Below the pieces are notes generated by a model. It searched no databases. It saw only the letters and a program-made list of their open reading frames with translations, and was not told the DNA's origin. A stretch of DNA of 52,093 nt, filler included, from Streblomastix strix (Eukaryota): assembly GCA_008636045.1 (NCBI GenBank). It is 3 parts of 3 records of this genome, joined end to end, with 100 filler letters (N's around TTAATTAATTAA, not from the genome) between each part and the next. Parts side by side here need not be neighbours in the genome. Positions count along the whole stretch, not along the records: positions 34,825 to 52,093 come from SNRW01000711.1; 2 more parts are not named here. One strand, given 5' to 3'. The position numbers and the translations under genes are program-made. This document shows, in pieces, positions 37,342 to 37,616 of this stretch; positions within the stretch are counted from its first letter, which is position 1; every line of letters starts with the position of its first letter.

Positions 37342-37616
37342 TTTATTGCGAACGTTTTAGGCTCCTAATCGTCATACAAGAGGCACGGTCGCCACTTATT
37401 GATAGTAGGGGTCACCCCAAAAAGGATATGGGATCGTACGTCATACAGGGAGATAAAAGCATAACTCAAAAGGGGGCGACAAAATAATAGAGGATTGGCG
37501 CTCCTAAAAATAATCTAAAATAGTCTAAGGTGAATTCTTATTTGCGAATACGTATATCCACTTGTCGTACATAGTGAGCTGACCATATTCACCTTGATAC
37601 TGTTGCAATCAGCTCA
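37342..37616 (-). promoter_or_regulatory. Conserved structured 3' UTR with AATAAA, copy 1
   Basis: Multiple stems between the stop codon and AATAAA (37342-37347); differences from copy 2 preserve pairing. Confidence 0.65.

Follow-up and report, generated by a model that had tools for sequence, protein, structure and literature searches.

Two surface-type protein genes of Streblomastix strix share a 3′ end that is real and apparently undescribed, extends across their gene family, and carries partial evidence of local RNA structure. The reading that we favour, with confidence a little short of even, is that of a 3′ UTR module common to the family, with local hairpins (H1, H4 and H9) that would form a putative dock for an RNA-binding protein and with a likeness among paralogs that would be maintained by gene conversion. 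Neither a regulatory RNA element nor a variable surface-protein family of oxymonads was found in the literature searched, and none of six terms searched for is present in the text of PMC10703272.

The window (the whole stretch of DNA analysed, 52,093 nucleotides from assembly GCA_008636045.1) is assembled from three pieces, between which N runs enclose a TTAATTAATTAA linker (17352-17451 and 34725-34824), with no adjacency implied across the joins, and the element is located in the third piece (34825-52093). Genetic code 6, in which TAA and TAG encode glutamine, opens long frames in the window, and no 120-residue frame exists with the standard code. The third piece contains a tandem duplication of ~8.1 kb in which a surface-type gene is accompanied by dynein and polyketide-synthase-like fragments; the following gene features lie in it:

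37636..38626, minus strand: surface-type gene 1, main exon, with signal peptide, papain-like domain and hydrophobic tail; genetic code 6
45725..46724, minus strand: surface-type gene 2, main exon, the same gene type, copy 2
38627..39020, minus strand: likely intron of copy 1, 394 bases, GT..AG, predicted from the sequence; copy 2 at 47117-46725
39022..39110, minus strand: GC-rich block upstream, conserved at 86% identity and likely a promoter or 5′ UTR; copy 2 at about 47200-47119

Each main exon comprises ~330 codons, with the signal peptide at the start and a hydrophobic stretch at the end, and the copy 2 protein is 100% identical to a Streblomastix strix record. In both genes the AT|G start codon is likely split by the ~394-base intron (39022-38626 and 47119-46724), an arrangement that leaves exon 1 with two coding bases; public gene models of the family have other starts, and the upstream block is read into the predicted N-termini of the family proteins P0004 and P0009. 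Broken dynein heavy chain and polyketide-synthase-like (dehydratase, methyltransferase) fragments flank the genes at 40800-41900, 42700-45350 and 47850-51900. Since P0009, which is encoded on another contig, also has dynein sequence before it, the cassette may travel with the dynein and polyketide-synthase-like fragments. Gene 1 is closely followed on its downstream side by arrays in which 13-14 base units are repeated in tandem (34 and 27 copies, 35350-36710), not far from the end of the contig; a telomere-side position was rejected, TTAGGG being observed 6 times against 11.8 expected.

The proteins of the two genes are 35% identical and belong to a family for which a profile search returned 113 proteins with E up to 0.001; 19 of the 20 family matches looked up are from S. 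strix, the remaining one being a true papain with a weak score. The predicted structure (pLDDT 91.9, 52 sequences aligned) has helices at 2-13 and 314-331 and a papain fold, the closest structures to the model all being of the papain family (Z 11.0, rmsd 4.2, 186 aligned, 9-16% identity). Foldseek against papain-family structures gives E 3.5e-05, and a sequence-profile search of solved structures returns weak cathepsin K matches only (E about 0.6). The family thus resembles the papain family C1A proteases in fold, but differs from them in that low identity, in its hydrophobic C-terminal tail and in a V at the likely catalytic Cys, which is present in 33 of 52 alignment rows three places past the conserved C111. 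The catalytic motif C-x-x-C-W was not found at this position in the family, and C-x-x-C-[WY] occurs in 2 of 118 proteins, neither of them a family member with the motif at the catalytic column, which we placed by what we take to be the papain catalytic-cysteine motif. A signal peptide together with a terminal hydrophobic stretch lacking a cytosolic tail, as in GPI-anchored surface proteins, is present, and on sequence and model the family likely consists of anchored, protease-dead proteins with a presumed location at the cell surface. Some members of this family (the P0002 family, alignment A4) instead end in a transmembrane segment followed by a cytosolic tail. For another oxymonad, Monocercomonoides, 44 cathepsin B paralogs are reported (PMC6759080).

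In both genes the element directly follows the stop codon and runs through AATAAA on the sense strand (TGA 37638-37636 and AATAAA 37347-37342 in copy 1; TGA 45727-45725 and AATAAA 45446-45441 in copy 2), exactly where the first-pass annotation had placed it, and the sequence and coordinates given there are correct for both copies. Further copies were looked for in five sequencing runs from two studies (X1-X5), all as DNA contigs; X1 is possibly the window's own source and adds no independent support.

37342..37635, minus strand: copy 1 of the likely 3′ UTR module, from behind TGA to the end of AATAAA; variant copies in contigs of X1-X4
45441..45724, minus strand: likely 3′ UTR module, copy 2, with 42 substitutions in 292 columns relative to copy 1; variant copies in contigs
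37295..37347, minus strand: AATAAA with a T-rich tract and the likely cleavage region, where the block shared in X1 has its 3′ edge; loose ends of copy 2 at 45439-45444

In the data of PMC8767320, AAUAAA lies 20-30 bases ahead of the cleavage site of oxymonad mRNAs, with U-rich flanks, and oxymonad 3′ UTRs have a mean length of 312 bases and 26% GC. The element's position is in keeping with such processing and its length matches this mean, but its GC content of 40% does not. The annotation had called the element GC-rich, which holds relative to the window mean of 27% (4.7% of 1021 windows reach as high a value), but coding regions likewise have 40-42%. A search of Rfam, which the annotation had proposed, yielded no match (0 at gathering score for the window, 0 at E<=5 for 37200-39200). 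Two other readings of the region were rejected, namely a new reading frame starting from the ATG behind AATAAA, where the loose end of one paralog has TTG, and internal tandem repeats within the element (p 0.48 and 0.74).

The sharing is wider than the two surface protein genes in which the element had been noticed. A near-identical tail is found in 11 of 118 proteins, which represent 9 distinct genes with an overall protein identity of 26-80%, and contig pieces over 37200-37800 number 59 in X1, 13 in X2, 18 in X3 and 33 in X4. In X1 the summed depth, which is not copy number, is highest around AATAAA and falls to single-copy level by 37241, and the common block stops about 45 bases beyond AATAAA (depth drop, loose end at 37295); other copies are unlike just beyond AATAAA, with T-rich words retained. 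The stretch 37200-37367 is without cover in X2-X4, which is uninformative since these are contigs. At the other end, four X1 contigs have H1 preceded by an unlike post-stop sequence whose first bases are a T run and TGA, a start that family members ending in FF would be expected to have. One X1 contig departs from the element directly after the stop and another directly after H1, indicating that the full module is not in all family members. The organism of the second study is 98-99% identical across the end of the gene, and so adds little evolutionary depth. A 20-base pattern had 0 matches in metagenome contigs, and protein-based searches for the locus in metagenome and in genome contigs gave 202 and 95 pattern matches, of which 0 were confirmed. 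Matches to the H1 pattern (7 viral, 13 prokaryote) were rejected as chance, with no alignment beyond the pattern and a best E of 0.006 over the pattern span.

About 300 GC-rich, multicopy bases with TTGAGCA on either side in both copies could also be left over from a small mobile element, or be a small RNA gene of its own, in either case inserted behind the family genes. We regard this as very remote, since the likeness between elements continues into the coding tail, TTGAGCA occurs 14 times in the window, Rfam holds no match, and the window's two copies both lie behind family genes.

The element copies are about 85% identical, compared with 35% for their host proteins, and fourfold sites agree between the gene copies at 7 of 11 positions in the signal peptide, 15 of 42 in the exon middle and 11 of 16 in the tail. 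Together with an identity of about 75% in the intron and of 73-94% in the flanking fragments, this makes the gene a mosaic in which both ends are alike and the middle is saturated, a pattern expected if central exons are exchanged or the ends converted. The dynein fragments (86%) and the downstream DNA (82-92%), at 88-94% for both in a second comparison, are as alike as the element, and intron and upstream DNA are roughly so, a likeness that the annotation had overlooked and which argues that gene conversion contributes and that the likeness of the pair is no proof of selection; within this pair the conservation of the element is not above that of its downstream neighbour. These identities are also what would be expected of an ordinary 3′ UTR that is alike through duplication and conversion only, serving perhaps as the 3′ homology arm in swaps of central exons or carrying short linear motifs, with no selected fold. 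We take this to be a serious possibility, if a doubtful one. Against it is that the block extends beyond the tandem pair, with edges near H1 and AATAAA, and the remaining arguments for and against it come from the predicted fold.

The five stems named in the first-pass annotation can all be drawn in both copies, but they differ in how they fare in the further copies, which were compared through a copy 2 variant table of 36 substitution rows with 24 new states, letters near contig ends excluded. The predicted structures considered below are:

37575..37616, minus strand: predicted hairpin H1, 11 bp, 37616-37606 with 37585-37575; copy 2, 45708-45698 with 45677-45667
37530..37561, minus strand: predicted hairpin H2, 6 bp; in copy 2 8 bp, 45663-45656 with 45634-45627; hypervariable loop
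37355..37509, minus strand: predicted 3′ domain closed by H3, 37509-37503 with 37361-37355; one G-U swap
37411..37480, minus strand: predicted stem H4, 8 bp, 37480-37473 with 37418-37411; copy 2, 45579-45572 with 45517-45510
37376..37399, minus strand: predicted hairpin H9, 37399-37391 with 37384-37376, one U.U pair and a 6-base variable loop; copy 2, 45498-45475

The stem of H1 is the same in both copies, with its three changes all in the loop, where one X1 contig also has insertions; its 11 bp were matched in 9% of 300 shuffles. H2, the second hairpin of the annotation, is drawable in both copies, but variable and dispensable: a contig found in X3 and X4 lacks it altogether (joint 37520-37565), and a letter that breaks it is present at 37533 in X2 and X4 (among 40 of the 151 rows listed). 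No new letters fall in H3 among the listed variant rows. In H4 all four changes keep the pairing, and two of these are new (p 0.08 when only the new changes are counted); the stem GUCGCCCC/GGGGUGAC is retained in the new copies. By contrast, the proposed C(G/A)UGC/GUAUG stem (H5) did not survive, as it is broken in further copies by two of three new letters and a deletion, and H9 is favoured in its place. The positions that vary in H5 lie in the loop of H9, which had been predicted before the contig data. One contig alters both sides of an H9 pair, from A-U to U-G (depth 4.72, adjoining a deletion), and G-C becomes G-U in four contigs, the same pair being A-U in loose ends of X1 and X4; these loose ends, which were read by hand, retain 7 of 8 and 6 of 8 pairs. 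The new letters of the table keep H9 in three cases and break it in two, and one contig with two indels breaks it twice. Two further pairings were rejected: stem H8 is broken at 45560 by the majority letter, and the rival pairing GUCGCC/GGCGAC, although it shows a true double change between the copies, has one new letter that keeps it and one that breaks it.

Conservation of the element could alternatively reflect splice signals of one or two 3′ UTR introns, with a donor hidden in the H1 loop. Donor-like GTRAAT (37592) and GTAWGA (37446), as well as an acceptor-like T-run AG (37504) and AG (37365), occur in both copies, and the site at 37504 is like the end of the gene's own intron and falls where coverage by X2, X4 and X5 is best. 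However, the element has 40% GC compared with 28% in that intron, an X1 contig carries insertions at the first donor, and 3′ UTR introns are rare in a related oxymonad (218 in 8354 UTRs in PMC8767320), so that we consider introns decidedly unlikely.

The original case for structure, that differences between copy 1 and copy 2 swap Watson-Crick and G-U pairs, turned out to be circular. In the two-copy consensus, pair-keeping changes are at or below the null (one-sided 5 against a null mean of 8.6, two-sided 0 against 1.6), and the G-U argument therefore does not stand alone. Of the 36 listed changes 18, or half, are transitions, which often yield G-U pairs unaided; CpG decay as the chief cause of the differences was rejected (only 5 of 22). 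Folding of the whole element in sense orientation gives z-scores of -0.44 and +0.14 against shuffles, with no excess stability on either strand, and sub-domains range from -0.4 to -3.1, inconsistently between the copies. The z-scores near 0 and the number of transitions are both consistent with conversion without a selected fold.

The placement of the differences, however, lends modest support to a fold on the sense strand. The consensus-fold energy of the real differences was compared with that of re-placed differences (300 nulls each, two null types), and the 3′ half is spared on the sense strand (p 0.023 and 0.007) but not on the antisense strand (0.91 and 0.75). For the 5′ half the values are 0.047 and 0.037 for sense, and 0.050 and 0.28 for antisense. 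The claim that the pairing works only on the sense strand thus has some support for the 3′ half, whereas the 5′ half reaches p 0.05 in antisense as well under one of the two nulls. In four other duplicated segments neither strand shows sparing of a fold (40 nulls each, p 0.20-0.80). Against conversion alone stand both this one-strand effect and the G-C, G-U, A-U series of H9 with its changes concentrated in the loop. A strict tally, from which loose ends were left out and in which the states are mutually dependent, gives for H4 and H9 five new states that keep and two that break pairs, against 2.7 and 4.0 in the null (p 0.03, the set having been chosen post hoc). With every stem predicted beforehand it is six to five, which is short of significance (p 0.13), without the long-range stem six to four (p 0.08), and for H4, H9 and H8 together p is 0.08; the values of 0.08-0.13 are again compatible with conversion only. 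What stands of the structured element proposed at first is modest support for a sense-strand fold and for two stems of its 3′ half, one of them new, while the fold as a whole is no better than shuffles.

A role at the DNA level is suggested by a resemblance between the two ends of the gene: about 38 bases before and around AATAAA recur in degenerate form and direct orientation (p 0.055 and 0.033) within the upstream block.

39081-39044 and 37370-37333, minus strand: degenerate direct repeat; copy 2, 47179-47142 and 45469-45432

In addition, AGCTTAAAAT occurs four times in the window, solely within the upstream block or the element end. The element could then contain protein-binding or recombination sites that mirror the upstream block and mark the ends of a gene cassette. 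The likeness is borderline and concerns an eighth of the element, and pair-keeping on one strand would be unexplained, which makes this highly unlikely in our view. The upstream-block word GATTGGGCGC is nearly complementary to the element word GCGCCAATC.

In the favoured reading, a family-wide 3′ UTR module, transcription through the module would place it in the mRNA as 3′ UTR, where H1, H4 and H9 would form and present sites to an RNA-binding protein, so that stability or translation of the family's mRNAs could be set together. The module would span from the hydrophobic-tail codons to the poly(A) region, and tail and UTR may double as a 3′ homology arm through which gene conversion between paralogs keeps the module alike, while the central exon is exchanged or diverges. 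By analogy, it is best read as a counterpart of the 3′ end of the variant surface glycoprotein (VSG) genes of Trypanosoma brucei. The VSG 3′ UTR contains a sequence common to highly variant genes and needed for mRNA stability, a 16-mer acting via CFB2 (PMC8051951), and VSG genes are exchanged through gene conversion (PMC8957917). As in T. brucei, one 3′ UTR sequence is found across highly variant surface-protein genes, but the VSG signal comprises 16 bases in a short UTR, compared with ~300 bases with predicted stems in Streblomastix. The protein folds are also unrelated, Streblomastix lives in the termite gut without a vertebrate immune system, and its module is known here from DNA, single-gene expression being a property of VSG. 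If the fold holds, the module would be a bigger, structured counterpart to the VSG 16-mer.

The 3′ UTR element of Leishmania amastins (SIDER1 type) comprises several hundred bases, belongs to a surface-protein family and affects expression; it is retroposon-derived and also present in many unrelated genes. The Streblomastix module is similar in that several hundred bases are common to the 3′ UTRs of a surface family, but the retroposon origin is that of Leishmania. VSPs, the surface proteins of Giardia that are variant-specific, are cysteine-rich and combine a variable ectodomain with a near-constant C-terminal tail that includes a cytosolic tail. Giardia is likewise a metamonad gut protist with a variable surface-protein family, but the Streblomastix family is papain-like and ends in a hydrophobic stretch. 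VSPs are controlled post-transcriptionally (PMC8957917). That control is RNAi-like. The module may thus work like known surface-antigen 3′ UTR elements while being a member of none.

Attached bacteria cover the surface of Streblomastix (PMC13002328), and the host proteins at this bacterial interface are natural suspects. In an extended scenario, which we consider unlikely, the coat of S. strix would be made up of more than 100 dead papain-fold proteins that differ through central-exon swaps between conserved arms, and the folded 300-base 3′ UTR element would let one or a few mRNAs dominate per cell. Such control would resemble antigenic variation, yet in a symbiont of the insect gut that has no antibodies to escape, and could plausibly tune which bacteria attach. 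The family-wide module also offers a handle, in that a single primer pair or probe could show which members are expressed per cell.

Elsewhere in the window, two lysine- and glutamate-rich genes in different pieces (13267-14877, minus strand, and 22278-23732, plus strand) are 69% identical across 1.2 kb, and a long gene in two frames (27395-33589, plus strand) encodes what we presume, from its motifs, to be a MutS-like mismatch-repair protein.
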